This document shows, in pieces, positions 2,428 through 60,891 of a stretch of DNA of 64,000 nucleotides (position 1 is its first letter; each line of letters starts with the position of its first letter). The stretch lies in NCBI GenBank assembly GCA_963713855.1, contig OY970209.1, positions 256,001 to 320,000 of the forward strand. Direction: 5' to 3'. This DNA is from an uncultured bacterium. GTDB taxonomy: Bacteria; Babelota; Babeliae; Babelales; Babelaceae. The notes under the pieces were generated by a model that saw only the letters and a list, made by a program, of their open reading frames with translations, was not told where the DNA came from and made no database searches. A program made the translations under genes and the position numbers.

Positions 2428-2429
2428 GC

Positions 2430-5393: not shown

Positions 5394-5406
5394 ATAGTTT
5401 ATGCTC

Positions 5407-6459: not shown

Positions 6460-6579
6460 ACTCCGCCCTAATTAAGCTTTTATTTACACGTACGCATTAG
6501 AACAATACTCTCGTTTCACAACGAATTTGTCAAGACATAACGCATTTTTAATGCAAAAAATGCGCTCATTTGTTTATTC

Positions 6580-13092: not shown

Positions 13093-13124
13093 AAAAAGGG
13101 AAGGTGCATGCCTTCCCTTTTTTT
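13093..13124. terminator. Bidirectional intrinsic terminator
   Basis: AAAAAGGGAAGG-TGCATG-CCTTCCCTTTTTTT between convergent genes, with T-tracts on both strands. Confidence 0.85.
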
Positions 13125-15681
13125 ATGCAAACACAAACCTATCCCCTTCAACACTTATCGTAATATGTTTAAGACCGGGATGCTTGAGCATAAATTCTGC
13201 CATCGGTCCTGTCAGGTACTGCTGTATAGCCCGTCGTAAAGGTCGAGCACCAAAAACTGGATCATAGCCAAGTGTCGCAATTTTATCTGCTACCGCGGGC
13301 ATGCTTGTCAATACAATATGCTGCTCTAAAAGCCTATGTTTAAGATCACCAATCTGGATTTCAGCAATACGCTTTACATCCTCATGTGTAAGAGTCTTGA
13401 AGAACACGATAGAATCAATACGATTGAGAAACTCGGGCTTAAAGGTCTTTCTTAAAAGCTCATGTATATGTTCTTTAACCGCATTTGTAAGACTACCTGC
13501 TTCCAAAATTGCATCTGAGCCAACGTTCGAGGTCATAATGATAATGGTATTTTTAAAAGAGACCCTATTTCCCTGGCCATCGGTCAAATGCCCTTCATCA
13601 AGTATTTGAAGAAAGACGTTAAATACATCTGGATGGGCTTTTTCAATTTCGTCAAACAACACAACGCTATACGGGTGTCTACGAACCGCTTCAGTAAGCT
13701 GACCACCCTCTTCATAGCCGACATATCCTGGAGGTGCACCAATAAGACGCGCTACCGTGTGCTTTTCCATATACTCTGACATATCAATTCGGATAAGCCT
13801 TTTTGGGTCATTGAATAGAAAATCAGCCAATGTTTTTGCAACTTCGGTCTTACCAACACCGGTGGGACCTAAAAACAAGAACGAACCGATAGGTCTATTA
13901 GGATCAGTAAGTCCGGTCCTATGCATCTGGATAGCGTGCGTGATCTCGTCAATCGCTTCATCTTGGCCAATAACTCGTTTTGTAAGTATTGAGCGCATAT
14001 TTATGAGTTTTTCAGCCTCACTGACTTGCAGCTTTTCAGCCGGTATACCAGTCCAACGCGATAGAACGGTAGCAACATCGTTTTCATCAACTTCTTCTTT
14101 TATAAGCGTGTGTGGCAGGTGCTTAATAGCATCCTGCTCTTTTGCAAGATCTTGTTGCAACTTAGCAAGCTTTCCATACTTAAGCTCGGAGGCTTTTGCA
14201 TAATCGCCTTCCCGCTCAGCCTGTTGGAACTTGGTTTGTACAGTTTCAATCTCTTCTTTAATTTTTTGAATACGCTGAAGGGGCTCTTTTTCAGCCTTCC
14301 ATTGCGCAAGAAGCGCCATATGTTTTTCTTTAAGCTGCGAAAGCTCTTTTTCAAGCTCTGAAAGTCGCGTTTTAGATACCTCATCCGTTTCTTTTGTCAG
14401 AGCCACTTTTTCGATTTCAAGTTGGCGTATCGTACGCTCTAGTGCATCAATTTCAGCTGGATGTGATTCAATCTCCATCTTTACCATGGAGGCAGCCTCA
14501 TCAACTAAGTCAATCGCTTTATCGGGCAAGAATCGATCAGGAATATATTTACTCGAAAGCAGCACAGCATCAACAAGCGCCTGGTCTTTAATACGAATAC
14601 CATGATGTAACTCATAGCGCTCTTTAAGCCCGCGCAAAATAGAAACTGCGTCTTCTATCGACGGCTCTTCTACAAGCACGCGCTGAAACCGGCGCTCCAG
14701 CGCTGCGTCCTTTTCAATATACTTTTTGTATTCTTTAACCGTTGTTGCCCCAATACAATGGAGAGTTCCTCGAGCAAGGGCAGGCTTTAGAAGGTTTGAT
14801 GCGTCCATGCCACCTCCGTGACCTCCAGCACCGATGAGCATGTGAAGCTCATCAATAAAGAGAATGACGTGATCATGCGTGTCTTCAATCTCTTTAAGAA
14901 TTCCTTTTAAACGCTCTTCAAACTCGCCCTGGTACTTGGTGCCCGCTATTAAAAGTCCTAGGTCCAGCGAGTAAAGCGTGCTTCCACGTAAACTTTCAGG
15001 AACGTCGTTATTGACGATACGTTGAGCGATACCTTCAGCAATAGCCGTTTTTCCAACACCCGGTTGACCTATAAGCACCGGGTTATTCTTTGTTCTACGA
15101 GAAAGAATCTGTATAACTCGCCGCACTTCCTCATGACGCCCTATGACAGGATCTAATTTGCCCTGACGAGCAGCCTCAGTAAGGTTTTGGCAAAATTTTT
15201 CAAGCATCTGGTAGTGCCTTTCGGCATTACGTGAATCCACTTTTTTGCCTTTACGCATTGTCTGCATCGTTGCTAAAAGAGCCGATGCTGTAAAACCACT
15301 CGCTTTGAAAATATCCCTTATGGAAGATGGTAGGTCCTTACTTTCTGAAAGAGCTATGAGGATATGCTCTATACTTACGTATTCATCATGTAAGCGGGAA
15401 GCTTCTTCTTCAGCTCGATTTATAACGTTTTGTAAAGCGTGGTCAGCAGCTAGTTGACCGCCTGAACTACGTGGAAGAGCCGCTAACTCACGGTCTGCCA
15501 ACACCTTCAACTGCTCAACAGGCACATTCATAAGCCTATATATCGAAAGGCAGAATTCATCGTCAAGCGTTACACGAAAAAGATGAAGCGGTGTCAAAAC
15601 AGGATTTTTAAGCTGTGTCGCTTTCTCAATTGCCGCATTAAAAAGCTCTTGTGTAAGCGTGGTAAATTTTTCAGGCTTCAT
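13123..15681 (-). CDS. clpB: ATP-dependent chaperone ClpB
   Basis: Clp N domain; two AAA+ modules ([16 protein letters not shown]); middle coiled-coil domain (ASELKYGKL); [24 protein letters not shown]. Confidence 0.97.
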
Positions 15682-16967
15682 GCGCGGATCCCTTTAATTC
15701 GTAAAAGCTTATGATAGCTTATCGCAAAATGGTGAGCGTAGTCACGTAAAGCTATAAGAAGCTGACCTAAAGCTGATTTATTATCTAATACAAACCCTTC
15801 TGGTATAGTTGAGGCAAAAAGACGCTCCTCGCGCTTTGCTAAGCTTATAAGGCACGCATTTGGAACAATACTGAGCACCGCACCTAGTTGCCCTTTACCC
15901 CCGTCAATCAAAACGACGTCAGGCATATCCCCTGCGCGGTAGCGTCGAAGCACCGCTTCTTGCAACGCCGCGTAATCATTTTGCTCATCTATGGTACGAA
16001 TTTTAAAACGACGGCAGCTTTGCTTATCTGGGCCTTTCTGGTTATAACGGACACATGAAGCGACCATGTCCCTACCTTGAAAGTGCGAAACATCAAAACA
16101 ATCTATGCTGCGAGGAATAGCAGCAAGCCCTAATAGGGACTTTAATTCCTCTAACCCACGAGCGTACGTATCTTGACTGCATGAGGTAGTTCCTTGCGCG
16201 CTAAAAACGTCAGTGCCTTCCTTGTTCCTTCGAGCATCCGCTATATGCGCACGCAATGTTGCAAAAATAGTAGGCAGATTTTCAAGATAGCTCACTAAAT
16301 TTCGCGCTTTTTCGTAATCGCGCTCAGAGCTATAACGCGCTATGTCTGTCCGCACAGAACGTTCAATACTTTCATACTTGCCCTCTAGAGCTTCTTTTGC
16401 AAGCTCAACTCGTTTTGTATACTCTTCTGAGTCAAATGTTTTTAAACAGCTACCAGCACAGTTACCTAAGTGGTAATCAAGGCATCCACTTTCCATGCGT
16501 TTTGCACATATTCTTAACCTAAAAGTTCGCATAAGGTATGCGTACGCGACGCGCGCTTGTTTTTTGTGAATAAAGGGACCGAAATAAACGCCCTTTTCTT
16601 TCTTATTGCGCACTAGTTTTACTTCAGGCAAGGTACCACTCGTAAAAAGTATGTAAAAGAATGGGTCACCATGCTTTAAGAGCACGTTAAACTTGGGCTT
16701 ATATTCTTTAATAAGCTGGGCTTCTAAAAGCAAAGCCTCAAGCTCGGTACCCGTTAATATGTAGTCAAGTGCAGCGTATTCAGCTATAAGCGATTCGATT
16801 TTCCAGTCCTCATAACGATTCTTAAAGTAAGAACGTATACGAGCACGAAGACACTTCGCCTTTCCTATGTAAATAACACCTAAGTCCTTATCTTTAAAAA
16901 GATACACTCCTGGAAGCTCAGGTATAGCGCGAATAAAATCTGGTACGCCCATAACGTAATGTTCCAA
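15678..16967 (-). CDS. uvrC: Excinuclease ABC subunit C, short form
   Basis: GIY-YIG domain (PGVYLFKD...IYIGKAKCLRARIRSYF), Cys cluster, UVR helix, RNase H-like domain (IDCFDVSH; LIDGGKGQL; LRDYAHHFAISYH). No C-terminal HhH. Confidence 0.9.
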   Translation of the reverse strand: MEHYVMGVPDFIRAIPELPGVYLFKDKDLGVIYIGKAKCLRARIRSYFKNRYEDWKIESLIAEYAALDYILTGTELEALLLEAQLIKEYKPKFNVLLKHGDPFFYILFTSGTLPEVKLVRNKKEKGVYFGPFIHKKQARVAYAYLMRTFRLRICAKRMESGCLDYHLGNCAGSCLKTFDSEEYTKRVELAKEALEGKYESIERSVRTDIARYSSERDYEKARNLVSYLENLPTIFATLRAHIADARRNKEGTDVFSAQGTTSCSQDTYARGLEELKSLLGLAAIPRSIDCFDVSHFQGRDMVASCVRYNQKGPDKQSCRRFKIRTIDEQNDYAALQEAVLRRYRAGDMPDVVLIDGGKGQLGAVLSIVPNACLISLAKREERLFASTIPEGFVLDNKSALGQLLIALRDYAHHFAISYHKLLRIKGIRA

Positions 16968-18316: not shown

Positions 18317-19114
18317 ATGAAAAAATATATGTTATTTACTTTATTGTTATCGGGTTTTGCTGTACAGCAGACAATGCCACAAACCAAAAACCCTTTGAGT
18401 ACTGAGTATTCGGGATTTGAAACATTAGTTCAAACGCTGCCTATAAATGACGCAATGAGGGTTACGTTGGCTGTTTTCTGGGACCAGCTTCCTGATGTCA
18501 CACAAGCGCAACAAGACCGTAAAGCACAGCTAGCAAAGGTGTATAAAGCACGGTTTGGTGACTTAGACCTTGCAGACTTCAAGCTCATTACCCCGTATAA
18601 AGAGTATTTTGACAAAACAGAGGCAATGAAAGTTCGTTATAGAGCTGATGCAATGCGTCTTAATCAAACGCTTAAAACACTGCAAACTTCACTTAAAGAA
18701 CTGCAAGCGAGTGAAGCAGATACGTCTGGAAAATTGCAAGGTCTTCAAAATGCAATCGGCGTTCTCTCATCAACATTGAATAATCTCGGTACATTACTGA
18801 GCGAGAGAGATACCTACTTGACATCAGGTGAAAGCATTTCAAGCGAAGATGTAGTCGATGTAACCAAAAAAATAGCTGATGCTCAGAGAAAATATAAAGA
18901 AGCATTAAATGAGTTACGAAAACAAGGTAATAAGTTAAATCTTTCTATCAAGTTAGACAACAGCTACCTCAATATCGTAACCAAGGCTGCTCTTGCTGAG
19001 TCTGGCGTTGAAGAACAACAAGTTAAAGCATTTGAAGAAGAAGAGCAGGGCATCAACGTTCCTGAAGAGGAAACCGAAGAAACGGGACCATCCGCAGGCG
19101 AGATGAACCCTTAA
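18317..19114 (+). CDS. Exported coiled-coil protein with acidic tail
   Basis: AAAGGAG RBS, signal peptide, heptad-rich middle, Glu-rich C-terminus. Confidence 0.75.
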   Translation: MKKYMLFTLLLSGFAVQQTMPQTKNPLSTEYSGFETLVQTLPINDAMRVTLAVFWDQLPDVTQAQQDRKAQLAKVYKARFGDLDLADFKLITPYKEYFDKTEAMKVRYRADAMRLNQTLKTLQTSLKELQASEADTSGKLQGLQNAIGVLSSTLNNLGTLLSERDTYLTSGESISSEDVVDVTKKIADAQRKYKEALNELRKQGNKLNLSIKLDNSYLNIVTKAALAESGVEEQQVKAFEEEEQGINVPEEETEETGPSAGEMNP

Positions 19115-19125
19115 AGTAATTAACA

Positions 19126-19156
19126 GCCAGGAAAGAAGATAAACTTCTTTCCTGGT
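19126..19156 (+). terminator. Terminator-like hairpin
   Basis: GCCAGGAAAGAAG-ATAAA-CTTCTTTCCTGGT right after the 18317-19114 stop. Confidence 0.65.
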
Positions 19157-19207
19157 TACACAAATTGCACTCGACCTAATTGAGTAAGAACTAAATAAAA
19201 GGAAACC

Positions 19208-19564
19208 ATGCTATTAATGCATAAAATATTCGTAGCATTTGCAGTATTGTTATCATCCGTCTTTCAAGGCTTGCTCGCACAGCCGCCTGCTGAGCAGATG
19301 GCAGCCATGAAAGAGCTTGGGGCAGGTACGGTTAAGCTCTGCGACTCTATAATCGAATGGCAACTAAGCAACAAAGCTAACACGAAAACCGATGAAAACC
19401 TTTCACAGAAGATCAAAGAGGCATTTAATAACTACGATGCAGCTTTAAAGAAAGCAAATTCCGCGGGTATGAGAGTTCCTCCAAATCGCTGCTTAGAAGA
19501 GCTTGCAAGAAACATAGAGGGCACAATCCCGACATCAACCGGACAAACGGTTATAGTGCAGTAG
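19208..19564 (+). CDS. Exported hypothetical helical protein
   Basis: Signal peptide ending LLA|Q; AAAGGA RBS; two Cys. Confidence 0.7.
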   Translation: MLLMHKIFVAFAVLLSSVFQGLLAQPPAEQMAAMKELGAGTVKLCDSIIEWQLSNKANTKTDENLSQKIKEAFNNYDAALKKANSAGMRVPPNRCLEELARNIEGTIPTSTGQTVIVQ

Positions 19565-19573
19565 GAGTTTTAG

Positions 19574-20476
19574 ATGAAAAAGGAGAAAACCATGCTTACA
19601 CGTTTTAACGCCTGGTTACTCCTAGCATGCATAAGTGTACTAGGGATAACAGATGCAAGAACTACAAAAGTGCATGTCCCTATACGCGTTGACGTTGTTG
19701 TAAGCGCAGGAAAACCCCGCACCATAAGGGGAAGAACTACAGCCAGAAGATCACCCAAAAGATCCTCAAGGGCTAAAGCGCCGTCAAAGCCAAAAGCTAG
19801 ACCATCAAAGCCTTCTAAGCCTTCAAAAAAACCGGCAGAGACTAAAAAACCTAAGGCACCAACAAAGCTAACGCCGAATGAAGAAGCCGGTTTAAGAATT
19901 CAATTAGCGGCTGTGACACAGCAACTTAACAACTTGACCGTCCAGTATCGACTTATTTCGACTAAGGCAAACGAAGCTGAAAAACTGAGCGCCGAACTTC
20001 TTGCAACAAAACGTTTGCTTGACGCAGCAAATCTTGCACTTATGCAGCACAAGCCAGCCGGAACTGTTTTAGAATCGATTAAAAATCTCAATAAAGAAAT
20101 TGATATTCTTACTTTCCAGCTCGCAGAACAGCGCAAGGAAACTGAACATCATAAAAGTAAATCCAAATCGCAAGAGCACGATATTGAGCTTTATAAAACA
20201 GCAATGGCAAAACATATCAGCAGTGATGAAAAATTCCTCGAAGCTTACGAAGCTTATCAAAACTTATTTTCAGGAATACTTGAACATACTCCCCGAGCAG
20301 TTCGAGAAGCTCGGCAAAATCTTTTTGATAGCTGGAAAGTGTATGTCGATGCCATAGAAAGACTCAATCGCATATTAACACAAGTAGGTATGCTTGTGCG
20401 TCCAGTAAAAGTTAACCCTCTCTATCAAAACCTTTTTGAAGGCGCACTTAAAGAAAGTGAAGTTAGCTCCAGCTAG
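19574..20476 (+). CDS. Exported protein with a Lys/Pro/Ser/Arg-rich basic segment and a coiled coil
   Basis: Signal peptide; RTTARRSPKRSSRAKAPSKPKARPSKPSKPSKKP; heptad repeats. Confidence 0.75.
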   Translation: MKKEKTMLTRFNAWLLLACISVLGITDARTTKVHVPIRVDVVVSAGKPRTIRGRTTARRSPKRSSRAKAPSKPKARPSKPSKPSKKPAETKKPKAPTKLTPNEEAGLRIQLAAVTQQLNNLTVQYRLISTKANEAEKLSAELLATKRLLDAANLALMQHKPAGTVLESIKNLNKEIDILTFQLAEQRKETEHHKSKSKSQEHDIELYKTAMAKHISSDEKFLEAYEAYQNLFSGILEHTPRAVREARQNLFDSWKVYVDAIERLNRILTQVGMLVRPVKVNPLYQNLFEGALKESEVSSS

Positions 20477-23400
20477 CACCTGATTCCGCCGCTTCAGATT
20501 GCTGCGATGAAAGACTTGCTGTAGTGCCTCCAGAAAGATTAGGTACCGACACTCCTTGTTGTGCCTGACCACCAGTAGTTGAGATTGATGATCCTGAAGC
20601 AGTTTGACTGCTTGAACTAGCACTTTCTGAGGTTTGGGTAGGTGATGTTGCTTGTCCAAGTTTTGCAAAAAGCTTTTGCGAGGCTTTAATTTTAGTGAGC
20701 AACGCTGCTGGCAGTGTTCCTGTGGCCGACTGGTAAAGGCTCAAGATGCGCGGATCAAGTGTTTGAAGAACCTGGCCACTTTGCCCATACACGTTAAAGC
20801 TTACAAGGCTTATAAGAGCATCAGGTTGAGATCCCGAAAACGGCATGCCATAATTAAGCACCGAGCCATCAGTCTTTACGGTTGCTACAATAACATAATC
20901 TGTATAGCCTTTCTGGGAAAGCGTATATATAAAGTGCCCAGCTAAGATATCGTCAATACTTGTAGCTGAAAGTTTAAACGGACCGAATGTGTACGCTGCC
21001 ATACTTTCTTTAGCATATGAAGTTCTTGCCGCAGCAATAGCATCAGAAACGGCGGTGTTTATATAACTATTAAGCGCAGCATTTTGTGCAACATACGTTG
21101 GCCAAACATTTGCTTGGTACGCTACAGGTGCACCATTTGCATTATAAACCGTACCGCTTACAAGACTTACAAGAAGGGACGGAGCTACTGTACTTGTAGG
21201 GCTTATGCCCATGCTTATTTGAAATGGTGGCACATTAGACATGCTATTGGCTAACACAACCCAATCCTTCTTGCCCGTTTTAGATGTTGTATATATGTAA
21301 TGCCCTTTAAGAATTTCGAATGCGTCAGCAGCCTCTAAATCTTTATAAGCACCAAGCGTCGGCCTTAAAAGCTTCTCATAAAGTGCTTGGTAACTAGCCG
21401 AGCGCTGGATTTCGGTAGTTGTAGGCCCAGAAATTGAAGTACTTGCTGATGTCGGTTCGATTGCAACGGCTGGAGTTACCATAGTAAATTCGATAGATGC
21501 TCCAGAATAAATGATACTCAAAGGAACCTTCGTAATCGCTTTTCCGTCAGCATCTGTCGCAGGAATTGGCACAACGGTGACAGCTGTAGCGGAAGGTGGT
21601 GTCTGGCCTTCTTGCCATACTTGAACAGAAAGTGAGCTACCAGAAAGCGTACCACGCATTCTATAAAAGACACCTTCGATAAAGTCGGGAGCTTTTATAG
21701 TTTGAGCAGCCCAACCTTCAGATTGTGCGCCCGTACTTACTTCGTGCTGGTAGACACCAAGGCCACTTTGCCCAGGCGCATTTTTAAATACGATCATTTT
21801 AGCATGGTTATAACGATCAAGCGTTGACCGGTGATCTTTAAGAATGCTTGCGGCATCCAAAGGCAATCCTCCCAATCCAATACCCACGTAATAGGATCCA
21901 AGAAGATATATAGGTCTTATACGCGCTTCAAATACTAGCGGCTGATTTGGAAAATAGGGCACGTCCTTACTAATGCTTTGCAAGAACCAAAAACGCTCTA
22001 CGGCATTTCCTTGAGAGTCTTTGAACGTTGCAGGAAGCTGGGCTACTTCTTGAGCAAAAATGCCACGAGCAGGCTCATAAAGTACCATACCCTGTGACGG
22101 GTTCAAATTCACAAGTCCCGTTTTATAACCATACAAGTCTCCAACATCACCCACTTGAACACCCTGAGCATTCGTCTGTAACAATTGGCCCTGATATCCA
22201 CCTAAAGCGTACTCCTGCTGAGTCACAAAAAGCTGTAAGAGTTGGTTATAAAAGTTTTGATAAAATCCTAAACCTATTTTTCTATTGCCTATTTCTGAAC
22301 TTAATTCCTCTTTGACTTCTTTTATAAGCGCATTCTGCATGCCCTGGCCCACGACTTCTTGGTTTTGTGTCCAGATGGTAAAGTTTTCAAGGTAGTCATT
22401 GATTTCTTTATCGACTGCTGCTACCTCCTCATCTTGTTGCTCACCGCTCATAATCATAAAAGCTCCGAAAGCAAGCGTTGCTCCTAGGCCAACTGCAAGC
22501 CAAATACCGCTGCCGCCAGTTACTATAGCAACACCAAGCAAAAGTCCAACAGTAACTACTTCTGATATAAGGCGCCTATGGGATTCAAGCTCGCTATGCA
22601 CCTCATTATAGAAGTTACTAATACCTCCCGCATTAATCCAGTCCTCAGGGTTAAGAACAGCAGCAAGAGCGGAGCCTACATCTATAACGACATCGGTTAT
22701 AAACTTAATAAGATAACCAACGGCCTGGATGAGACCTTTAATAACGTCTTTAATGATACCTATACCAACAACGATAGTCTCTAGAATGGAAGCTACGATA
22801 TCACGACCTAGAATTTTCCAATTATTTAAGAAAGCAGCTCCCTCTCCCCCACCGGTAGCAACAGCTATGATTGCACTTGTCAATATGGAGACAGCATCTC
22901 CAGTAAGTTTTGTCGCTACATCACCGATAAGCCCAGCAGCTGAACCTATAACCGTTCCGAGAGAATCTGCGACCGTATCGAGCATACCTTCGTAGTCTGA
23001 TGCAAGATTCGGGTCATTCATAATCTCACCGACGCCTTCCAATACAAGGTCAAGCGGTGCGCTACTAATCGATTGGCCAGCTTTTATTACGTTGCTAACT
23101 ACGTCTTTTACGTCACTGCCGAAATTCTTAATGTCTCCATCGACTGCATCTCTATAAGCTTCAGCCATATGTAAAGCCTGCGAAGGTGGAATATGCTGAA
23201 TGAGGGTTGCAAGCCCTGATTGATAGTAAATCACAGCTCCTTCGTCTTTTATAACATCGATGACATCCTTGGCAGTCGCAAATATGGCCTCTCCCACATT
23301 TTCGAATGCATTGGCAATGCGTTCTCCTACGTGCTCAATCCAATCTACAAAGCCCTGCTGAGTTATACGTTCGTTGTCATAAGCACCGGCTGACGGAGGT

Positions 23401-24782
23401 ACAGTTAGATTATTAGCTTGCTGGGCAGCGACGTTTTGACGAGCGGCTTTTGGCAACTCTTGCCCTAAAGCCACCCAATCATCAAGGTAGATAGCATCAG
23501 CAGCAGTATAAGGCAGTAAAGATGGCATTGGAGAGCGATGTGCCTGGAGTAATACCTGTATACTCTTTTCTAAATGTGTTTGGTCAAATAGGTAATAGGT
23601 CAAAGTTTGAAGCGTGATAGCCATACTTAAAAAAAGCATCTCATGTTTATATGGTGCCGGTAACGTGATGTGCTGAAAACTTATCTTTCCGTCTTTTTTA
23701 ACAAATGGGCTATCAGTACAGCCAATCTTGGCTTTCGGATCTTTACACAATGGATCACATGATGGGTCACAAGGCTTAAACATGGTTGGATCACATGCGG
23801 GATGGCTCAATGTTTGAAGTACTTGGTAAAAAGTTGATTGCTCAAAGCATTCTGCCCCTTTTAGAATCGAAGCAAAATCAAATTCAGTGCTTCCTGTTTT
23901 ATGCATACTTCCCCATTCGATAGACTGATCAAGTAAACCGCGGCGCGTACGCTCGTTAAGAAGTAGTGCTAATTCGCTTAATTCAGCCGTGTAGCGTTGT
24001 TGAGTAAAATTGGGAAGGTAATAAGCCGTTTCAAGGTATGGTATATACCTAAAAAGTTGTTGCTCATTTTGATGGCGCGTTGAAAGCAATTCATTATCCA
24101 AAATAAAGCTCTTAGTGATCATAACTTTAAGGTAGTCTTGCCAAAAGAGTGAGGTTTGCAAATCTTGCTGTGTTAAAGGCAAAGAAGACCAGAATGATGT
24201 CCCTGAAATAAGAGACCAAAATTGAGTAAGATTTTTACGCTCGCTTGTAAACGTTGCTTGAAGCGCGCTATTCACGCCATCCCAGCCATCTTGTGTGTGT
24301 TCAAGCTTTGTGAATTCGATAGGCCCACCGTGCTTTTTTGAAAGCGTTCTTATAAGATCAAACCATGTACCTTTTTGCAAAATCGATTCATAGTCAATGC
24401 CGTATTTTTTAGAAAGTGTTAAGAGTTTTGCAGCGCGTTCACGCTTTACGCAGTACTCAAAATAAAAGTAAAAAATCTTTATATACGTTAGTAATTGTGC
24501 ATCAACGTCGAAGCCTGACGGACCAAAAAAAGCATCCACCGCGGACTCGTTGATAGAGGATGTAGGATATAGAGGCACTTTTGAAAGAGATGTATCCTGC
24601 GGAAACTCTGGCCAGGCTACAAAAATAAACCTTTGAGCAATTTCGTTTAGCGAGCTTTGCTGACTCGCTACGTTTTGTTTGGTCTCTTTTATCTTCTCTG
24701 CTAAACTAGTCGCTTTTTCTGCCGCGTACATTGTTACCGAGGAAAAAAGAAGGAGTAAAAAGTGTGCTATAAAGAACTTCAT
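20463..24782 (-). CDS. Large exported protein (1439 aa) with a long amphipathic/hydrophobic helical core and a beta-rich C-terminal region
   Basis: Long uninterrupted ORF; signal peptide; Gly/Ala/Val/Ile-rich region of about 300 aa ending in a TM hairpin; two C-terminal repeats; Ser-rich tail. Confidence 0.85.
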   Translation of the reverse strand: MKFFIAHFLLLLFSSVTMYAAEKATSLAEKIKETKQNVASQQSSLNEIAQRFIFVAWPEFPQDTSLSKVPLYPTSSINESAVDAFFGPSGFDVDAQLLTYIKIFYFYFEYCVKRERAAKLLTLSKKYGIDYESILQKGTWFDLIRTLSKKHGGPIEFTKLEHTQDGWDGVNSALQATFTSERKNLTQFWSLISGTSFWSSLPLTQQDLQTSLFWQDYLKVMITKSFILDNELLSTRHQNEQQLFRYIPYLETAYYLPNFTQQRYTAELSELALLLNERTRRGLLDQSIEWGSMHKTGSTEFDFASILKGAECFEQSTFYQVLQTLSHPACDPTMFKPCDPSCDPLCKDPKAKIGCTDSPFVKKDGKISFQHITLPAPYKHEMLFLSMAITLQTLTYYLFDQTHLEKSIQVLLQAHRSPMPSLLPYTAADAIYLDDWVALGQELPKAARQNVAAQQANNLTVPPSAGAYDNERITQQGFVDWIEHVGERIANAFENVGEAIFATAKDVIDVIKDEGAVIYYQSGLATLIQHIPPSQALHMAEAYRDAVDGDIKNFGSDVKDVVSNVIKAGQSISSAPLDLVLEGVGEIMNDPNLASDYEGMLDTVADSLGTVIGSAAGLIGDVATKLTGDAVSILTSAIIAVATGGGEGAAFLNNWKILGRDIVASILETIVVGIGIIKDVIKGLIQAVGYLIKFITDVVIDVGSALAAVLNPEDWINAGGISNFYNEVHSELESHRRLISEVVTVGLLLGVAIVTGGSGIWLAVGLGATLAFGAFMIMSGEQQDEEVAAVDKEINDYLENFTIWTQNQEVVGQGMQNALIKEVKEELSSEIGNRKIGLGFYQNFYNQLLQLFVTQQEYALGGYQGQLLQTNAQGVQVGDVGDLYGYKTGLVNLNPSQGMVLYEPARGIFAQEVAQLPATFKDSQGNAVERFWFLQSISKDVPYFPNQPLVFEARIRPIYLLGSYYVGIGLGGLPLDAASILKDHRSTLDRYNHAKMIVFKNAPGQSGLGVYQHEVSTGAQSEGWAAQTIKAPDFIEGVFYRMRGTLSGSSLSVQVWQEGQTPPSATAVTVVPIPATDADGKAITKVPLSIIYSGASIEFTMVTPAVAIEPTSASTSISGPTTTEIQRSASYQALYEKLLRPTLGAYKDLEAADAFEILKGHYIYTTSKTGKKDWVVLANSMSNVPPFQISMGISPTSTVAPSLLVSLVSGTVYNANGAPVAYQANVWPTYVAQNAALNSYINTAVSDAIAAARTSYAKESMAAYTFGPFKLSATSIDDILAGHFIYTLSQKGYTDYVIVATVKTDGSVLNYGMPFSGSQPDALISLVSFNVYGQSGQVLQTLDPRILSLYQSATGTLPAALLTKIKASQKLFAKLGQATSPTQTSESASSSSQTASGSSISTTGGQAQQGVSVPNLSGGTTASLSSQQSEAAESGASWS

Positions 24783-26317
24783 GCCTTCCCCCCTCTACCT
24801 GATGCAAGATCTTTAGGCTGCAGAATCTTGAACGCTGCCTGACAGCCCGGGGACATGAATCCGACACCGTGATACCAAAAAAGAAAGGTGCTCTCAGCAG
24901 GATCCAATGTACTGACCGAACCGGCGTAGAGCTCTTTAAAACTCGAGCCTTCTTTCTTTTCAAGCGTAACCGATACTGACGACTCTTGGGTAAGAACTGT
25001 TAATCTAAATGTACTAGGATCTTTACCCAAAGCCCGCACATCAGCATCCTCTAACGTATAAAGTACCGGCAACTTGCCCGAAGCTATTTGCTGCAAAGGT
25101 GTTGTAGTTGTATATAATCCGCCCAATGATGTCATCTGTGTTTGCCCAAGGTAGAGGCCAATGGTAGGCTTTCCATTGCTCATAGACCCGTAAAGTCCCA
25201 CTAAGCGATACCCAAACATGCGGTCGGGACTACCTGAGAGCCAACGCGCTCTATTAAAGAGCATCCCAGCAAAAAAGGGATAGACGTTTTGGATGAGCGT
25301 TATTTCGGTCTGTACCTGATAAGCACTCTGACTCGTAAAATAGTCAGTAAAAATCTGGTTTTGATCCGCAAGATCCGTATCAGCGCCGGGACTTGAAGAC
25401 CATGGTTTTTGAAGACCTTTTTTTACTAAATCTGGCTGGGCACCTATATTTAAGCCACGTTGGACAAAAAAGCCGCCCATATCGTCAAACTGCCAGTCTC
25501 CAACGGGAAAAATGTTATACCAATTACTTGTACTGTTAGGCACCGGCATTGAAGATGCTTTAAACCAGTGTTCAGTTTCGACGGGCAAAATAACAAATAG
25601 TTGGGGAGGTATGCTCAGGTTTATAAGCCTTTGAATGTAAGAGACCTCTTGCCCAAAAAGCGCTTGCGTATAAGAAAGGCTCTTTTGTATAGCACCAACA
25701 GCCTCAACAAAATTTTGATTGATACTTTTCAACGAAGAACCGGTCCTTAGTTGCATCTTTGTTTCAGTCGCTTTATAGGACTCTGCAATTTTTTTTACGC
25801 GATCCATGAGCTTTTGTTGCTCTACTTTATCATCTGCGGAAAAAAGCTCTTGAGCGAACTGTTCACCTGAGACGATGACGACGTTTAAAAGAAGATCAAA
25901 TAAAATATTTTGTGGCTGAACCTTTTGTGCGGATTCCTCAACGATCAGTTCAAATGATGTCCAAAAAGCTATACCTTCTCCCGTTTGAGCTCCCTCAGAA
26001 AGTAATGCACTCTCAAGCAACTGCTTTAGCATGCGTCCCTCTTTACAGATAATCTTAGGTTCTTGCTCTTTAAGCTCAGGATGTTGAAATTCATAAAGAC
26101 GCATCAATTTTTCTAAACCTTTTTTGTGCGCATGCATTGCATCTTGGGACGGTATCAAGTTTTGATGCACCTCTTTAAGGGCAGCATATTGATCATTAAT
26201 CGGAATGGCAACAACAAGAGAAGTTAAGCGATGCTCCATTGCAGGGCTTAAAGCCGCGACTACACCGTAAGCCATACTGCACGCGAGAGCTATGAGTATT
26301 TGCAATAGGAAGACCAT
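24779..26317 (-). CDS. Exported protein (512 aa) with a coiled coil and a beta-domain paralogous to the 1439-aa protein
   Basis: Signal peptide; 4-bp overlap with the downstream gene; colinear motif similarity (see findings). Confidence 0.8.
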   Translation of the reverse strand: MVFLLQILIALACSMAYGVVAALSPAMEHRLTSLVVAIPINDQYAALKEVHQNLIPSQDAMHAHKKGLEKLMRLYEFQHPELKEQEPKIICKEGRMLKQLLESALLSEGAQTGEGIAFWTSFELIVEESAQKVQPQNILFDLLLNVVIVSGEQFAQELFSADDKVEQQKLMDRVKKIAESYKATETKMQLRTGSSLKSINQNFVEAVGAIQKSLSYTQALFGQEVSYIQRLINLSIPPQLFVILPVETEHWFKASSMPVPNSTSNWYNIFPVGDWQFDDMGGFFVQRGLNIGAQPDLVKKGLQKPWSSSPGADTDLADQNQIFTDYFTSQSAYQVQTEITLIQNVYPFFAGMLFNRARWLSGSPDRMFGYRLVGLYGSMSNGKPTIGLYLGQTQMTSLGGLYTTTTPLQQIASGKLPVLYTLEDADVRALGKDPSTFRLTVLTQESSVSVTLEKKEGSSFKELYAGSVSTLDPAESTFLFWYHGVGFMSPGCQAAFKILQPKDLASGRGGKA

Positions 26318-28076
26318 TTATGAGCCTCCTTGTTGAGCGTTATCAGATGCATATTGACCAATTCCTGCATATCCTCCTTCTGGAGACTCAGGAGGACTTA
26401 CTGGGGGAGGTTGTTCCTTCTTTGTACTTCCGCTAGGCTTTGTAACTGCTTTCATGTATTCGTTATGCGTTGATTGCATCAAATCTAGCTCTTCCTGACA
26501 TGCCGAAAGAACGCTTCCGGTGCACGATACATTTTGCGATGCGCAGATGATGCGTTCGACACAGGGGCTTAAGATATTCATGCCAACAAGTCGTGTATAA
26601 TCGCCCAAGGCTGCACCAAGCATATTTATAATACCGCCAACCGAGTTAAGCCAAGCTGGCTGCTTTTAAAATTTCCTGAGCGTATGGCCCGTTAACGGTA
26701 GGTAAATTAATAAAGAGCTTAACAGCGCTTTCTAGATTTCTTGTAACTTGTCGTTGAGCATCTTCAAAGTAAGCTACAACGTACCCTAATGGAACACCTG
26801 GAAGGTAGGCACCTTTTTTATCGGGATTGGGTTGTCCACGACTTGTCGCTTGAGTACCTGCTTGTGCACTTTTTACAAGCTGCGCTGGCCAGCCGAGAAG
26901 CAGAGTATCTTTTGGTAAATCTAAAGCCAGGCGTGGGATTATACGCAGAGCTCGCAAAACGGTTGGGTCATAATGAAAAAGAGGTGGATTAATAGGTTTA
27001 GCTTTAGCTCTCAGTTGGCGCAAAGCATTTACCTTGGCCTTCGTTTCATCATTATTGGTATTAGGCATAGCAGCAATGGCACTTGCTTGACGCTTAAACG
27101 GATTTTGCTCCATAACAGATGCTATGTGCGTAGCATAACGAACAAAGAGCGAAGAGCCAGGAATAGGGCTTTTAGTATCTGGTTGATTTAAAGAAGAGGT
27201 GTACTGCTTAAAAAAGTTTAGCACTGTACTCAGGGCATCCAGGTATGTTTTTTGTATTTCTTGCAGACTTTTGTGAGCAATTTTTTGTGCTGGCAATTCT
27301 AAATCACCCTGAAAAAAAGGTTTTGAAAAATCTCTTACCAAAAAGAGCGGATCTGCCGTCAAATCATGTTGTAACATGAGGGCGCCCACCTTAAGCCCAA
27401 AATGTTGGGGTATTAAGGGCTGATGGTGTGAGCACACAAAAAAGAGCTGCGCTTGAATGACGTTAAGTAAATGAGCAACAATGAGTGATTTTTTATTAAA
27501 AGCTTCAATAGGCTCATCAACCAAGTAATCATAGACCGTATTTTTGTGCATGAGCGTAAAAGTACTGTATAAGCTCGTCAAATAGCGATAGATATCGCTT
27601 AAAGCCATAAACTGAAACTTGCGGAATATCGGTATAAAATAACTGAGGTCTATATCTTTTTTTGTAAATGCTCCAGCATTTTTTAGCGCTGCTAATACAG
27701 CATCAAAAGCGCTCGAAAGCCCGGAAGCATCTGGAAATAATGCGCTACCACCCGGATGATAGACTTGAGCATGTGCTCTAAGGGTCGTGCTAATTTGACC
27801 CCGTTGAGCAGCTAAAACTGGTGCAAAAGCAATGTTGTTTTTCGTCGTGGCGGAATCTTTAATAATCAAATTTCCCGCGGGAGTCAGCCGAGCTGTAGCA
27901 TATTGCGTACAGGTTAAATCGCCTACTCGGCTTTGCGGATTTGAGACAGGTATCCGGCACACCTCGCCTGTATCTACAGATGATGGAACTTTTTGAGCAA
28001 CTGCTTTAGAAAAAAAGACGGTAATTAAGAGAATAATTTTTAAAAAAGGAGACTTTGCAAATAGCATGCCATGCAA
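26318..28076 (-). pseudogene. Exported hypothetical protein (about 585 aa) split by a 1-nt frameshift (track ORFs 26646-28076 and 26318-26623)
   Basis: Removing one base from minus-strand ATTTTAAAAG (plus 26663-26672) joins ...AQEILK to QPAWLNSVGGIINMLGAALGDY... with no stop; no RBS before ATG 26623. Confidence 0.65.
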
Positions 28077-28244: not shown

Positions 28245-30731
28245 TTAATCCTGCTTATTGGCGGGATGAAATGCCATGTCTAAAATAAGAGCTAGCACTT
28301 CAGCGGGAATTGCGGCAGCAAATTCATTTCCTGTAGCTGCCAGAACGCCGCCAAGTGAGTTTATCACTGATTGATTATTTGCTTGCGTGTTTGTCTGTCG
28401 CATATGCCCAATGAGAGCAAGACTTTTAAATATGCGATCTAAGGCAGCTTTATATTCTTCTGACAGGCCTTCCTCAGATAACCGTGATCTTGCAAGCCTT
28501 CCTGACCTACCTATATCAAGCCCCAGTTGCCCGTGGTCAGTATCAGTAAACGCGTGTTGTAATATATACGCGACTATCTCTTCTGAGCCTCCTAAAACAG
28601 CGTTTTCTAAAGCGTCATTTAACGCGCTTAAAAAAATATCTGGAGTTAAAGTAGCTTGCGCAAGCTGATACACGTTCTCAAAAAAGGAAAGATTTCGAGG
28701 GTCAGTTGCAGAAACACGCAAGGCATCTTGCATTATGTGTTGCATTCTTTCCTCAATTTTCTCGTCTACTAAAGGACACATTTTTTCAAAATCGTCCCAG
28801 TTACCTTCAACCGCAGCGTTATGCATATCTTCTTCTAAGCTTTCGGGCGTTACATAGGCACCAACCAGATCCTCGCCTAAGACAACCGAAAGGTCATGAA
28901 GACGGCTAGCGGTTCTAAATTCTCGCGGCATATCTTCATGATCAAGAAATACTCTTAAACGTTCTAGTAATTCAACCAATTCAAAATCAACATGACGTTC
29001 AGGATAACGCATCTTGCGATCATGTTCATGAAACAGTTCTGGAACATTTTCAACTATACAAGCAATAATTTTGTCACGACCCAGTCGAGCAGAGCGAAGT
29101 ACAGTTTTTTTTGAAATATCTAAAAGCCTCGCTCCCAAGACATCAAATGCTAATGGGCAGAATTCTTTTACAAAACGGGCGTTACCGGCTAGTAAAAAGG
29201 CGCGCTCAACCTCTCGGTCAAACAATTTCTTTTTTAAGAGGTTTTTTATTTTTATAAACGTGCTCCAATTTCCACGAATGGCCGCACTGATTAAAGCCTT
29301 CTGTAAAGCTCCATCTCTATAATCTCTCAATCCTACACTGTCCAGATTCGTAACCAAATATGTTTTGAAATTATCAATTATTGTATCAACCAATTCTTTA
29401 TATCCAAGCGCGATAGCAAGTTGTAAGCCACGACCCAATTGCCGAGCGTCCAACAATTCATCACCATAATAATAACGGCCTGAGATGACATTTGCCTCTG
29501 CAAAAAACCCGCCTATAATAGCGCTTAGCAGCGTTTTTCCTTCGGCATTATACAATGTTACGAGTGCATGCCTATTTGCATCACTCATCTCTGCCCCATG
29601 AATGACTAACCATTCGGCTAACTCTTTATGCCCATATATGAGCGCGATATCAAGCAGACTTTTTTGCTTACCATGGGACGTACCACTAATAGGAACACCC
29701 CATTCTAAAAGTCTTTCTATAGAAAGTTCGTCACCAAAATGGGCCGCTAGGTCAAGAGCATTGTAAGGTCTCGAGGTGGAAGTTAAAGCAAATGGATTTG
29801 CCCCGTGGTCCAACAGCTTTGAGAGCATCCTAGGATTTCTATTTGCAACAGCAACATGTATAGGGGCATAACCTTTATCGTTTCTGACGTTGACATCAAT
29901 GGGACGTTTTAAAAGAAGATCAACCACATGCGGATTACATTCCAAAACTGCCATGTTAAGCATTAAAATGAGAGAATCAGCATGATAATTTGAATCATCT
30001 TTTAAGAAAAGTTTTAAATTTTTAAGACAATGCTCTGAATCTAACGCAGAAGCAAACAGCGCCAATGATAGCATGTGAGGATCAAGGCAACTTAATATTA
30101 ATACCGAAATATCGTGATACCCCCGTCTATTTGCAATTCGAATGGGAGATTCGTTATTATTTACTATATTTACGTCTGCGCCACTTTCAATGAGAAATCG
30201 AGCAACATTGGTGTGACCTCCAAGCAGTGCATCAATTAAAGCAGTGTTTCCTTGACTATTAACGGCATTTAGATCCGAGTTCTCGCCTATGAGCCATCGC
30301 ACCACTTCCTCATGGCCAAACTGAGCTGCAAACTGCAAAGCGGTACCCCCTAAGTCCGTTCGAGAATTGACCGAAGCACCGTTTTTTACAAGCATTTTTA
30401 CCACGTCAAGATGGCCTTCTTCTGCTGCTAAGTGTATGGGCTGGATTCCTTGACGCCTACTGCGAGCATCCGGTCGCGCACCAAGACTTATGAGCAATTC
30501 AACCATAGAATGACGACCTTCGAATGCGGCCACGTGAATAGCTTCATAGCCCTCGACAGTATTGGGAGCATCTATCCTCGCTTGACGCCCTGTAAGCACT
30601 ATAATGCTATCATCCTGGCCTTCCTGCGCTGCTATATATAAAGAATCGTTTTCCTCAACCTCGCTTTGCTTCTCCATGCCCATTAAGCTAGAAGTTGCAA
30701 CCAAAAGTAAGAAAATGTATGTCCTCATCAA
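28245..30731 (-). CDS. Exported ankyrin-repeat protein with C-terminal F-box-like motif
   Basis: Signal peptide; many G.T(A/P)LH.AA..G...V..L repeats; ends IPAEVLALILDMAF. Confidence 0.9.
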   Translation of the reverse strand: MMRTYIFLLLVATSSLMGMEKQSEVEENDSLYIAAQEGQDDSIIVLTGRQARIDAPNTVEGYEAIHVAAFEGRHSMVELLISLGARPDARSRRQGIQPIHLAAEEGHLDVVKMLVKNGASVNSRTDLGGTALQFAAQFGHEEVVRWLIGENSDLNAVNSQGNTALIDALLGGHTNVARFLIESGADVNIVNNNESPIRIANRRGYHDISVLILSCLDPHMLSLALFASALDSEHCLKNLKLFLKDDSNYHADSLILMLNMAVLECNPHVVDLLLKRPIDVNVRNDKGYAPIHVAVANRNPRMLSKLLDHGANPFALTSTSRPYNALDLAAHFGDELSIERLLEWGVPISGTSHGKQKSLLDIALIYGHKELAEWLVIHGAEMSDANRHALVTLYNAEGKTLLSAIIGGFFAEANVISGRYYYGDELLDARQLGRGLQLAIALGYKELVDTIIDNFKTYLVTNLDSVGLRDYRDGALQKALISAAIRGNWSTFIKIKNLLKKKLFDREVERAFLLAGNARFVKEFCPLAFDVLGARLLDISKKTVLRSARLGRDKIIACIVENVPELFHEHDRKMRYPERHVDFELVELLERLRVFLDHEDMPREFRTASRLHDLSVVLGEDLVGAYVTPESLEEDMHNAAVEGNWDDFEKMCPLVDEKIEERMQHIMQDALRVSATDPRNLSFFENVYQLAQATLTPDIFLSALNDALENAVLGGSEEIVAYILQHAFTDTDHGQLGLDIGRSGRLARSRLSEEGLSEEYKAALDRIFKSLALIGHMRQTNTQANNQSVINSLGGVLAATGNEFAAAIPAEVLALILDMAFHPANKQD

Positions 30732-30766: not shown

Positions 30767-32938
30767 TTAACCATGCTTATTGGCAGGCCTAAAAGCCATG
30801 TATAAAATAATGGCTCGCACTTCAGCGGGAATTGCGGCAGCAAATTCATTTCCTGTAGCTGCCAGAATTCCTCCTAGAGAATTTACCACTGACCTATTAT
30901 TTGCTTGTCTGTTTGTCCGTCGCATGCGCCCAATAAGAGCAAGATTCTCATGTATGCGTATCAAAGAGGCTCTGTATTCTTCAGGTAATCTTTCTTCACC
31001 TAACCTCAATCTAGCAAGACTTCCGGCCCTACCAACATCAAGCCTAAGGTCACCACGCACGGTATCGGTAAATGCGCTTGCTAGTATAAAAGATACAATT
31101 TCTTCGCTGCCTTGAAGCGTTGCGCGAGCAAGAGAGTCATTTAAAGCCAATTCTAATTCTTCTCGGCTTAATAAGCCACTAGCTGAGCGATAGAGTTCTT
31201 GAAAAAGAGAAACGTCGCCCGAAAGTGTTGCGCACCATAATAAAGCACTGCTCAAGATTTCACGAAGCGTTTTAGCGCCTGAAGTCGGCGCTTCGGACGA
31301 AGATAAAACATTGCACAACATGTCAGAAAGTGTTTCATTACAACGATCTTCTACTAAAGCGTAAAGTTTTTGAAAAAGTTTCCAATTGCTTCGAGCAACC
31401 GCGCTTATTAAAGCTTGTTTTAAACTGTCAAGCGTTAGGTGTTCTTTATATTCCGTAATCATTGTTTCAATAACCTCTTCACGCCCTAAAGCAACTGCGA
31501 GAGGCAATCCAAGGTTTAATTCAAACTCTTCCAATATTTCGCCGCTATTACGTTCTTGATCCAAATATTTTTTTGCATACTCCGTATCGTCGCCTATAAT
31601 TGCAGAAAGAAGACATTTTCCAAGTGTGCCATAATAAAGTGTCAGCGCCAATCTGCTCACTTCATTCAAGTGTGCACCATGCGTAAGTAGCCATTCAATG
31701 AGTCCAGGATTCTTTTGCTCTAAAGCAAGACGAATCGCATCTTTCGTTTCAATAACGGAAACGCTATTAACCGAACCTCCCCACGCTAAGAGGGTCTCTA
31801 GAGCTGTTAGCTGACCTTTTAAAATTGCTATACCAACCGGATTAAGCATATCTAGGGTAAATGCTTCCGGAACATGCACGCTCGCTCCAGCTTCTAAGAG
31901 CCGCAAAAGAATTTCAGGAACTTCATGTGAGGCTGCTATATGTATAGGAGCAAAACCTTCTTTATTTCTTAAGTTAACATTAGCTTTATGATTTAACGCC
32001 AATCTAACGATATTGGACTTTTTCTCTTTAACCGCAAAACAGAGCAATGTGCGGTCTTTTTCATCCGGAAGATCGATAGGAATCCCATTTTTGAGAAGTA
32101 ACTCTAGTTGAGTCGCTGGTTCATTTACATCTAAAATTCTCTGTAATGCTTTTATCTTCGAATTTGCATCAAGACCTTTTAAGATAAGATCTATTATGAC
32201 AGCACCCAAATTGCGGTATTGAGCAATTGCCATTGGTGTGGTTCCACTCGCATTAGAAGCATTTATCTCAGCGCCATTCTCAAGCAAATATTGAGCAACG
32301 TCTTGATGACCCTCTAGAAGAGCGTTGATCAAAGCAGTATTTTGCTCATTATCTGCTGCATTAATATCCGCCCCTTGACCTAGAAGCCATCTTACCATTT
32401 GTAGATGACCTCCTTGAGCAGCAAGTATTAGGGGAGTTGCTCCTAAGTCTGTTCGAGCATGTACTGAAGCTCCACGTTCTACAAGATACTCGGCAACTTC
32501 ATAGCGTCCCGCTCTAGCTGCAAAGTGTAGAGGATGGATGCCAAATTTGGTGCTTCGAGCTGTGGGACTCGCGCCAAATCCAATGAGAAGTTTTAGCGCA
32601 TTAAGATTACCTGTTGACGCTGCTACATGAACAGCCTGATAACCCTCAGACCCATTAACAGCATCAATAACGGCTCCTTTCATTTTAAGCATCGTCACAA
32701 TACGAATATGCCCATATTGCGCAGCAGTATATAAGGGAAAAACGCCTGCGTCATTTGGCTCATTAACATCAGCGCCCATTGCAATAGCAATCGCAAATGT
32801 CTCTTCGTCACCATTATTTGCAGCGCCAAAAAGCAAACCTTTGACCACGATCTTTATATTGTCTTTTTTAGTCTCCATGCTTTGCAAGCTAAAAACAGCG
32901 CTTAATGCCAAGAAAAAAAAATGGTACGGTTTTATCAT
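30767..32938 (-). CDS. Exported ankyrin-repeat protein with C-terminal F-box-like motif (tandem paralogue)
   Basis: Start reassigned to ATG 32938 (MIKPYHFFFLALSAVFSLQSME); ankyrin repeats; C-terminal about 100 aa closely similar to 28245-30731. Confidence 0.9.
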   Translation of the reverse strand: MIKPYHFFFLALSAVFSLQSMETKKDNIKIVVKGLLFGAANNGDEETFAIAIAMGADVNEPNDAGVFPLYTAAQYGHIRIVTMLKMKGAVIDAVNGSEGYQAVHVAASTGNLNALKLLIGFGASPTARSTKFGIHPLHFAARAGRYEVAEYLVERGASVHARTDLGATPLILAAQGGHLQMVRWLLGQGADINAADNEQNTALINALLEGHQDVAQYLLENGAEINASNASGTTPMAIAQYRNLGAVIIDLILKGLDANSKIKALQRILDVNEPATQLELLLKNGIPIDLPDEKDRTLLCFAVKEKKSNIVRLALNHKANVNLRNKEGFAPIHIAASHEVPEILLRLLEAGASVHVPEAFTLDMLNPVGIAILKGQLTALETLLAWGGSVNSVSVIETKDAIRLALEQKNPGLIEWLLTHGAHLNEVSRLALTLYYGTLGKCLLSAIIGDDTEYAKKYLDQERNSGEILEEFELNLGLPLAVALGREEVIETMITEYKEHLTLDSLKQALISAVARSNWKLFQKLYALVEDRCNETLSDMLCNVLSSSEAPTSGAKTLREILSSALLWCATLSGDVSLFQELYRSASGLLSREELELALNDSLARATLQGSEEIVSFILASAFTDTVRGDLRLDVGRAGSLARLRLGEERLPEEYRASLIRIHENLALIGRMRRTNRQANNRSVVNSLGGILAATGNEFAAAIPAEVRAIILYMAFRPANKHG

Positions 32939-33124
32939 GATATCTACACATCTCTGCTTAAAAATAATACAATTATCATACGTAAATGAATTTCTGTCAA
33001 AAAGGCGACATAAAAACACGCCTATCTTAAAAAAAACAGACTTACTGGGTTGCATTCCTAAGAGTTTATTTTAAGCTATTTAAAAGTTCGCCGTTTTTTG
33101 ACCATTATTAAGGAAAGTATTTTT

Positions 33125-60843: not shown

Positions 60844-60891
60844 TAGACTTATTGAAGCTTATTTTTTTTAAAGACTCTAACATGTGTAAGT

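Follow-up and report, generated by a model that had tools for sequence, protein, structure and literature searches.

The DNA analyzed here, referred to throughout as the window, is a 64,000-nucleotide stretch (positions 256,001 to 320,000 of contig OY970209.1, assembly GCA_963713855.1) from an uncultured bacterium of the family Babelaceae. Positions 20463-28076 of its minus strand hold an operon for three putatively exported proteins, which we call A, B and C. An earlier note, made from the sequence alone, had described a three-gene operon whose products resemble a membrane-inserting pore or translocon apparatus; the three-gene family is indeed conserved among relatives, but the window itself shows four open reading frames (ORFs) in this interval, of 476, 101, 512 and 1439 amino acids (aa), not three, with gene A split by a frameshift.

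The 5' part of gene A is the 476-aa ORF (26646..28076), which encodes an exported protein of predicted novel fold and is homologous to residues 53-479 of the A protein of a sister genome, where A is intact as one 587-aa ORF; the true start may be the ATG three codons downstream of the TTG at 28076. The 3' part lies in the stop-to-stop frame 26318..26665 and contains the 101-aa ORF (26623..26318), which matches residues 493-583 of sister-genome A with an expect value (E) of 1e-19. A tblastn search of the window with sister-genome A locates the frameshift at a T3A4 run (26663..26670), frame +1 stopping at ...QEILK and frame +2 resuming at KQPAWLNS.... By this alignment the 101-aa ORF is the predicted C-terminal part of gene A and no separate gene, and the frameshift may be a genuine mutation, an assembly error or a site of slippage.

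Gene B (24779..26317) encodes a 512-aa protein with a signal-like N-terminus, a variable helical part, a hydrophobic helix, a helical spacer of ~115 aa and a predicted concanavalin A (ConA)-like lectin domain, and gene C (20463..24782) encodes the 1439-aa large multidomain subunit. The 4-bp overlap that had been noted between B and C is correct; a 0-bp gap is likewise present, but it separates the A fragment from B, as the 3' part of A is in frame with B and a single TAA stands between them. A and B share one frame, one stop codon apart, in several relatives as well as in the window, and in one relative (G072) they form a single 977-aa ORF (L038:9834-12767). A scan for promoters and terminators returned fewer sites than in shuffled sequences and is uninformative.

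Across the 261 genomes of the phylum that we searched, C is found in 49 by single-protein search and in 50 by profile, B in 49 and A in 48, in the same genomes and always in single copy, so that the three genes co-occur in the same 48-50 genomes. Restricting the set to genomes with completeness of 90% or more and contamination of 5% or less leaves 41-42 carriers among 189. All carriers belong to eight families of one order, with 14/16 genomes in f2, 14/14 in f4, 2/4 in f7, 1/1 in f9, 1/1 in f10, 8/10 in f11, 5/5 in f13 and, besides the genome studied here, 4/40 in the window's own family, f1. The operon was not found in the remaining families (e.g. 0/35 in f17 and 0/80 in f21), nor, in all, in 211 of the 261 genomes.

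Locus structure was compared in 40 carriers; nine more, whose contigs are fragmented or whose copy is broken, were left out of this set (G008, G017, G044, G047, G062, G067, G082, G094 and G095). In all 40 loci C is immediately preceded by B on the same strand, and A stands upstream of B in 37, the other three contigs ending before A is reached, and the A-B-C order on one strand held in the synteny comparison across relatives (40/40 loci). Junctions are short: 33 of 36 A-B pairs and 36 of 39 B-C pairs are separated by no more than 15 nt, and overlaps of 4 bp and 1 bp are frequent. The conservation spans deep divergence, with sequence identity of only 20-25%. The A-B-C operon is a real, conserved and tightly coupled unit.

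An AlphaFold2 model of residues 25-1224 of C, computed from 46 sequences, has a mean predicted local distance difference test score (pLDDT) of 68.5 and a predicted template modeling score (pTM) of 0.49. It opens with an all-helical N-terminal domain (aa ~75-455; 23418..24560, minus strand, as for all features of the operon), with pLDDT mostly between 85 and 94 at model residues 50-430 and carrying the conserved residues W214, Q215, K219, E240, E251, Y255, R263, W290, Y319 and D429; the fold-search matches listed for the 1200-residue C model are filled by the lectin domain, not by this N-domain. Acidic Gly/Ala-rich amphipathic helices follow (aa ~460-735; 22578..23405), recognized from composition and periodicity, residues 470-735 being rich in Gly, Ala, Val, Ile and Leu, acidic, and strongly periodic in hydrophobicity at 3.6 residues. 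This region ends in a pair of hydrophobic helices (aa 738-756 and 760-778; 22449..22571) joined by a GGSG turn, with Kyte-Doolittle (KD) means of 2.1 and 2.0 over 19 aa, and the pair occupies a conserved position in all 46 homologues. The amphipathic run and terminal hydrophobic hairpin that the earlier note had seen in C are thus borne out by composition, periodicity and the helix pair alike.

Beyond the hairpin lies a length-conserved helical spacer (aa 781-892; 22107..22442), with a helix at model residues 742-844; in the AlphaFold model a single helix of ~100 residues, mostly of low confidence, follows the hairpin. This segment had been called a coiled coil, but the canonical heptad form is not what the alignment gives, since the alignment-averaged periodicity is 3.6-3.67 and not the heptad 3.5, and the spacer is better described as a predicted long amphipathic helix. 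It leads into a beta-rich domain (aa about 869/893-1110; 21453..22106) modeled at pLDDT ~90, for which fold comparison confirms the suspected lectin/ConA assignment by matching the model to a two-sheet jelly-roll beta sandwich. The beta domain of C and B is accordingly described here as a predicted ConA-like lectin/glucanase fold with putative carbohydrate binding, with ligand, metal or binding-site residues not assignable at 7-15% identity to known members.

Two small beta domains come next, an apparent internal duplication (copy 1, aa 1142-1217, 21132..21359, with confident strands at model residues 1139-1198; copy 2, aa 1265-1336, 20775..20990) whose copies share 38% identity (E 4e-12). C ends in a Ser/Thr/Gln-rich tail (20466..20630). 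Comparison of the C-terminal 70 residues of the 46 homologues shows that the protein closes, after a Pro/Ser/Thr/Gln-rich linker, with a conserved motif of the form S-[IL]-x-[ED]-R-[QT]-x-x-A-[AS]-G followed by an aromatic and by GG; the motif, which is degenerate in the window, may be a docking or sorting signal.

B repeats much of this plan. Its hydrophobic, glycine-containing helix (aa 135-157; 25847..25915; B alignment columns 705-727) is equivalent in position to the second hydrophobic helix of C, and in one family, where the variable part is absent, it comes straight after the signal peptide, so that mature B would there begin with the hydrophobic helix. The lectin-type beta domain of B (aa 266-505; 24803..25522), delimited by hhalign to the beta domain of C, contains the invariant residues W266, W275, Q286, G351, N355, W359, R371, G486, G491 and P501. 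A pairwise BLASTP comparison of B with C is not significant (best E 0.92), and the relation is visible in profiles only. Profile alignment by hhalign reached 74% (E 2.8e-5) with 20 against 21 sequences and 91% (E 9.8e-7) with 40 against 46, pairing B219-503 colinearly with C836-1106 and recovering all five motif pairs on which the earlier note had based its proposal of a relation between the two proteins. The proposed paralogy of B with the C-terminal half of C therefore holds at the level of profiles.

All 40 C proteins have 112-123 aa between hydrophobic helix and lectin start (30 of them have 112-114), and 28 of the 40 B proteins have 114-116 aa; the 12 longer B spacers all belong to one family, with an insert beside the lectin domain. 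Given that this equal spacer length is rigidly kept at 20-25% identity, B and C may work side by side. Together, B and C share a predicted plan in which a hydrophobic helix rich in glycine is joined through a rigid helical spacer of ~113 residues to a ConA-like lectin head.

The third protein, A, showed no relation to B or to C by hhalign. The model of the sister-genome orthologue is confident (pLDDT 82, pTM 0.79) and matched no structure in the PDB, which makes A a predicted novel fold. The expectation of co-encoded paralogous subunits thus applies to two of the three proteins, B being the paralogue of C 836-1106 in adjacent genes (40/40 loci) and A being unrelated. Each of the three begins with a signal-like hydrophobic segment, as judged by hydropathy only, and the segment recurs in most homologues of A (31/37), B (32/40) and C (32/45); these counts apply a threshold of 12 aa at KD of at least 2.0. 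The predicted signal peptides that had been reported on all three proteins are therefore present as hydrophobic N-terminal segments, here and in most homologues.

Searches of Pfam, NCBIfam and PHROGs assigned no family to A, B or C, and no family match was found among the 21 C and 38 A homologues scanned. The single PHROG match, an Rz-like spanin (E 0.009), covered the signal region only (residues 5-48) and was discarded. Profile searches of PDB sequences yielded compositional matches only (alpha-synuclein and designed helical bundles), look-ups in the ESM Atlas with C 60-460 and with A gave no usable match, a homologous-protein search returned 6 relatives only, and a related-loci search with the single C protein found the sister genome only. 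A description of the A-B-C operon was not found in the Dependentiae literature searched.

A profile of C 60-1130 run against 1.84 billion representatives matched 498 proteins at E<=0.001, 146 at E<=1e-10 and 126 at E<=1e-30. The strong matches are full-length relatives, and the four that were checked (4/4) had no Pfam domain. The weak matches cover the amphipathic region only; among 7 of 8 scanned, all 7 are giant helical-repeat proteins with Baculo_PEP_C, 6/7 match ApoLp-III and 4/7 match tape-measure models, and outside the family this region matched only apolipoprotein, ApoLp-III, Baculo_PEP_C or tape-measure-like helical repeat proteins. These weak matches reflect what appears to be shared composition and repeat type and are no evidence of common function.

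The operon occupies a fixed chromosomal site in single copy. In relatives, A has a divergently oriented M23 peptidase gene beside it, in many cases with a PilO-like gene behind, and a UvrC-like gene and clpB lie beyond C. The window holds the same genes: an M23 peptidase (Pfam PF01551; 33853..35070, plus strand), which is the divergent neighbor of A in 11 of 12 loci with annotated flanks, a UvrC-like gene with GIY-YIG and RNase H domains (15678..16967, minus strand), the conserved downstream neighbor of C in relatives, and after it ClpB (13123-15681). Two of five operon-less relatives examined lack the operon cleanly, with the M23 and UvrC-like genes adjacent and 233 and 323 bp apart. In one relative of the window's own family (G008), C carries four in-frame stops (3 TGA, 1 TAA) and A and B fragments occur twice (C1:38062-45958 and 60617-63776); this assembly is 7% contaminated, and the broken copy may be decay or an assembly artefact. 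The simplest reading is of an ancestral operon, dispensable and passed on vertically, that the family of this genome is in the process of losing.

Two further groups of genes flank the operon in the window. Upstream of A are two ankyrin-repeat proteins of 828 and 762 aa (28245-30731 and 30767-33055, minus strand) with signal-like N-termini and nearly identical C-terminal ends of ~60 residues; because the M23 gene directly adjoins A in most relatives, the pair, which here separates the two, is specific to this lineage and was inserted or duplicated there. Relatives have no genes between C and the UvrC-like gene; the window has three small ORFs there, of 265, 118 and 300 aa (18317-20476, plus strand), helical and Lys/Pro-rich with signal-like N-termini and matching no Pfam family above cut-off, the last of which overlaps the 3' end of C convergently by 14 bp. 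The ankyrin genes and the three small ORFs are insertions peculiar to this genome. Elsewhere, eukaryote-like genes adjoin the operon at four loci (L022, L027, L028 and L041), encoding WD40/beta-propeller (829 and 1103 aa), C2H2 zinc-finger, ubiquitin C-terminal hydrolase and SET-domain proteins.

The genome is 91% complete and looks host-dependent, with three tandem TLC nucleotide transporter genes outside the window (G000:C1:915360-919525) that are a mark of energy parasitism. The earlier note takes the phylum to be Dependentiae, an assignment with which small genome size, nucleotide transporters and eukaryote-like proteins are consistent. FHIPEP (PF00771), a type III secretion system (T3SS) marker, was not found in this genome by a search that matched 4 control genomes, and the type IV secretion system (T4SS) marker VirB4 was likewise not found in it. 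Parts of a type II secretion system (T2SS) or type IV pilus are present: the genome has two GspF/PilC genes, and the window a secretin cluster (296-8114, minus strand) with a 1003-aa secretin whose best match is GspD (243 bits, below the curated cut-off) and which is PilQ-like too. This cluster is probably T2SS or type IV pilus outer-membrane machinery. For comparison, a published Dependentiae genome is reported to have signal peptides on 44% of coding sequences (PMC6561590).

The reading we favor, at a probability of roughly 0.35, is that A, B and C are subunits of a host-interaction complex, exported by Sec and specific to this clade, which couples the recognition of glycans to the engagement and perturbation of a host-derived membrane. 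The lectin heads, perhaps with the extra beta domains, would bind glycans on that membrane, the amphipathic helices of C would open onto the bilayer, and the marginal helices of C and B would enter it and perturb or permeabilize it, leading to entry, vacuole remodeling or egress. A, with its predicted novel fold, is proposed as a partner of B and C. The data show conservation, operon coupling, the paralogy of B and C, the lectin fold, the amphipathic and hydrophobic segments and the matching spacer lengths; we infer the assembly of A, B and C, the identity of the target membrane and any pore activity. That the operon can be lost, and is decaying in close relatives, suits a factor for host interaction more than it does a core envelope part.

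The hydrophobicity of the helices bears directly on this proposal. On a crude biological hydrophobicity scale, the first helix of C (transmembrane helix 1, TM1) has a median of +2.2 kcal/mol, below 0 in 12 of 46 homologues and above 0 in 34, the second helix a median of +4.3 kcal/mol (below 0 in 2 of 46, above in 44), and the B helix a median of +7.5 kcal/mol (below 0 in 0 of 40). Marginal hydrophobicity is what lets proteins that pass from a soluble to a membrane-bound form cross the Sec machinery, and marginal Gly/Ala-rich helices after a long amphipathic run are a hallmark of proteins that make this switch. The idea that the helix pair is necessarily trapped in the inner membrane is weakened by these marginal values.

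Several observations count against a host-membrane role. First helices in several homologues contain Asp and reach +4 to +8 kcal/mol, so that the 'hairpin' is not uniformly membrane-competent. In 12 of 46 homologues, all of one family (L034-L038 and L055-L061), an acidic, low-complexity, Ala/Glu/Lys-rich insert of 112-504 aa separates the hydrophobic helices, extending C to as much as ~2000 aa; a loop of this size would be unable to cross a target bilayer after secretion and is a poor fit with spontaneous hairpin insertion. The helical and hydrophobic region of C (460-825) has a pLDDT of ~30, its architecture not being modeled with confidence, and profile and structure searches found no sequence or fold link to a known pore former or translocator. 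Finally, the housekeeping neighborhood (M23 peptidase, UvrC-like, ClpB) and vertical evolution fit a cell-envelope role too.

Such a role, in a resident envelope complex, is nearly as likely as host interaction. C would sit in the bacterial inner membrane by its helix pair, with the intervening loop cytoplasmic and the large parts periplasmic and B alongside, and the spacers would hold the lectin heads at a fixed distance on peptidoglycan, lipopolysaccharide or an outer-membrane partner, for tethering, spacing or assembly. The long inserts tolerated between the helices are then what cytoplasmic loops allow, and in these insert forms the 20 residues that precede the second helix have a basic character (45 K/R vs 25 D/E); the first helix, where its value falls below 0, could stop transfer in Sec. 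The strictly kept spacer length, the conserved C-terminal peptide after a disordered linker, the fixed core site beside the M23 peptidase and PilO-like genes, and the single-copy, vertical inheritance point the same way. Most of the helices, however, are marginal or poor membrane spans on the crude scale (34/46 first and 44/46 second helices being above 0 kcal/mol), and the charges that flank them give no consistent topology under the positive-inside rule, with a conserved H-R-R before TM1 and 0 K/R vs 35 D/E over the 20 residues that follow TM1. The operon is also dispensable: 35 of the 40 other genomes in its family lack it, as do entire sister families, and deletions are clean.

A bolder form of the host-interaction proposal is rather unlikely on present evidence. 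It would make the operon a lectin-guided, multi-subunit membrane-insertion machine, with no relation to toxins of the ClyA or MACPF/CDC type or to the translocators of secretion systems, that breaches or remodels a host-derived membrane in bacteria lacking T3SS and T4SS, with A as a new fold that chaperones or primes the paralogous insertion subunits.

Less likely again is a surface adhesin or fiber that inserts into no membrane, in which B and C would form a stalked lectin for host glycans, serving attachment or uptake, the hydrophobic helices would anchor or pack the stalk base, and A would aid assembly. Predatory bacteria recognize prey with stalked fibers that have lectin-like tips, and the placement of the lectin heads and two small beta domains at the far end of a long helix, the export signals on A, B and C, and a loss pattern typical of host-range factors would suit such an organization. 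The proteins nevertheless show no recognizable outer-membrane anchor, whether beta-barrel or lipobox, the N-terminus of B having no canonical lipobox; the spacer has no heptad periodicity, and ~270 conserved amphipathic residues and the conserved N-domain of C would be left unexplained.

A dedicated translocon, that is, a conduit in the host vacuole membrane for Sec/T2SS-exported effectors such as the ankyrin proteins, is very improbable: a multi-subunit design with hydrophobic helices, exported ankyrin proteins adjoining the operon in the window and a 91% complete genome in which no T3SS or T4SS marker was found speak for it, but the ankyrin genes were inserted in this genome alone and are not conserved neighbors of the operon, there is no sign of a channel, and the operon was not found in 211 of 261 genomes, which appear similarly host-dependent and rich in signal-peptide proteins. 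Given this absence, and that from 35 of the 40 other genomes of the own family, a general route for the phylum's signal-peptide effectors is unlikely.

Whichever reading holds, the operon addresses the question of how a host-dependent phylum with many Sec-signal proteins, and in this genome no T3SS or T4SS found, acts on its protist hosts. It is a concrete candidate for a host-interface machine, with deep conservation, modular anatomy, a lectin-type head combined with membrane-active-looking helices, and a confidently modeled protein of no known fold, and its clean loss in many lineages provides natural knock-outs for comparison. If an envelope tether were the true function, the operon would still be novel, as a periplasmic spacer of a new kind based on lectin domains.

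Among known systems, the bipartite and tripartite toxins of the ClyA family (XaxAB/YaxAB, Hbl, Nhe and AhlABC) are among the closest in outline, with coupled subunits, two of them paralogues, long helices with a mid-sequence hydrophobic segment, and Sec export. The operon is like them in its coupled genes, its two paralogues, its long helices with a mid-sequence hydrophobic segment and its signal-like N-termini. It differs in that the paralogy of B and C lies in the spacer and the ConA-like lectin domain, which have no counterpart in those toxins, in that C is 3-4 times larger, and in that A is unrelated to B and C. Membership in the ClyA/Hbl/Nhe/XaxAB group, which had been suggested, gains no sequence-family match in Pfam, NCBIfam or PDB sequences; a ClyA-type chain was not among the fold matches listed, which are filled by the lectin domain, the relevant region of C being modeled at pLDDT ~30. 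The comparison with T3SS translocators of the SctE/SctB type fares no better, since FHIPEP was not found in the genome and A, B and C start with signal-like segments.

Three-domain Cry toxins, Vip3 and the HN+HCN part of clostridial neurotoxins share with B and C only the common ConA-like fold, and in the fold matches many unrelated lectins and glycoside hydrolases outscore these helical-plus-lectin toxins; the operon differs further in that it has three proteins, lacks a protease or enzymatic moiety and is unrelated to them in sequence. Chlamydial Inc proteins and hairpins of the mitofusin/atlastin type share with C two adjacent hydrophobic helices (738-778, in 46/46 homologues; bilobed) between long helical flanks, an arrangement that would place both flanks on the same side of the membrane. 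Inc proteins are T3SS substrates without Sec signal peptides or a lectin domain, whereas C has a signal-like N-terminus and a lectin domain, in a genome in which no FHIPEP was found. Within the ConA-like superfamily itself, the predicted domain stands beside CBM66, the L-type lectins ERGIC-53 and Emp46p, DUF1349-like structures (3mep and 3o12) and PL7 lyases at 7-15% identity and with no Pfam match, and the domain context in which B and C carry it is unique.

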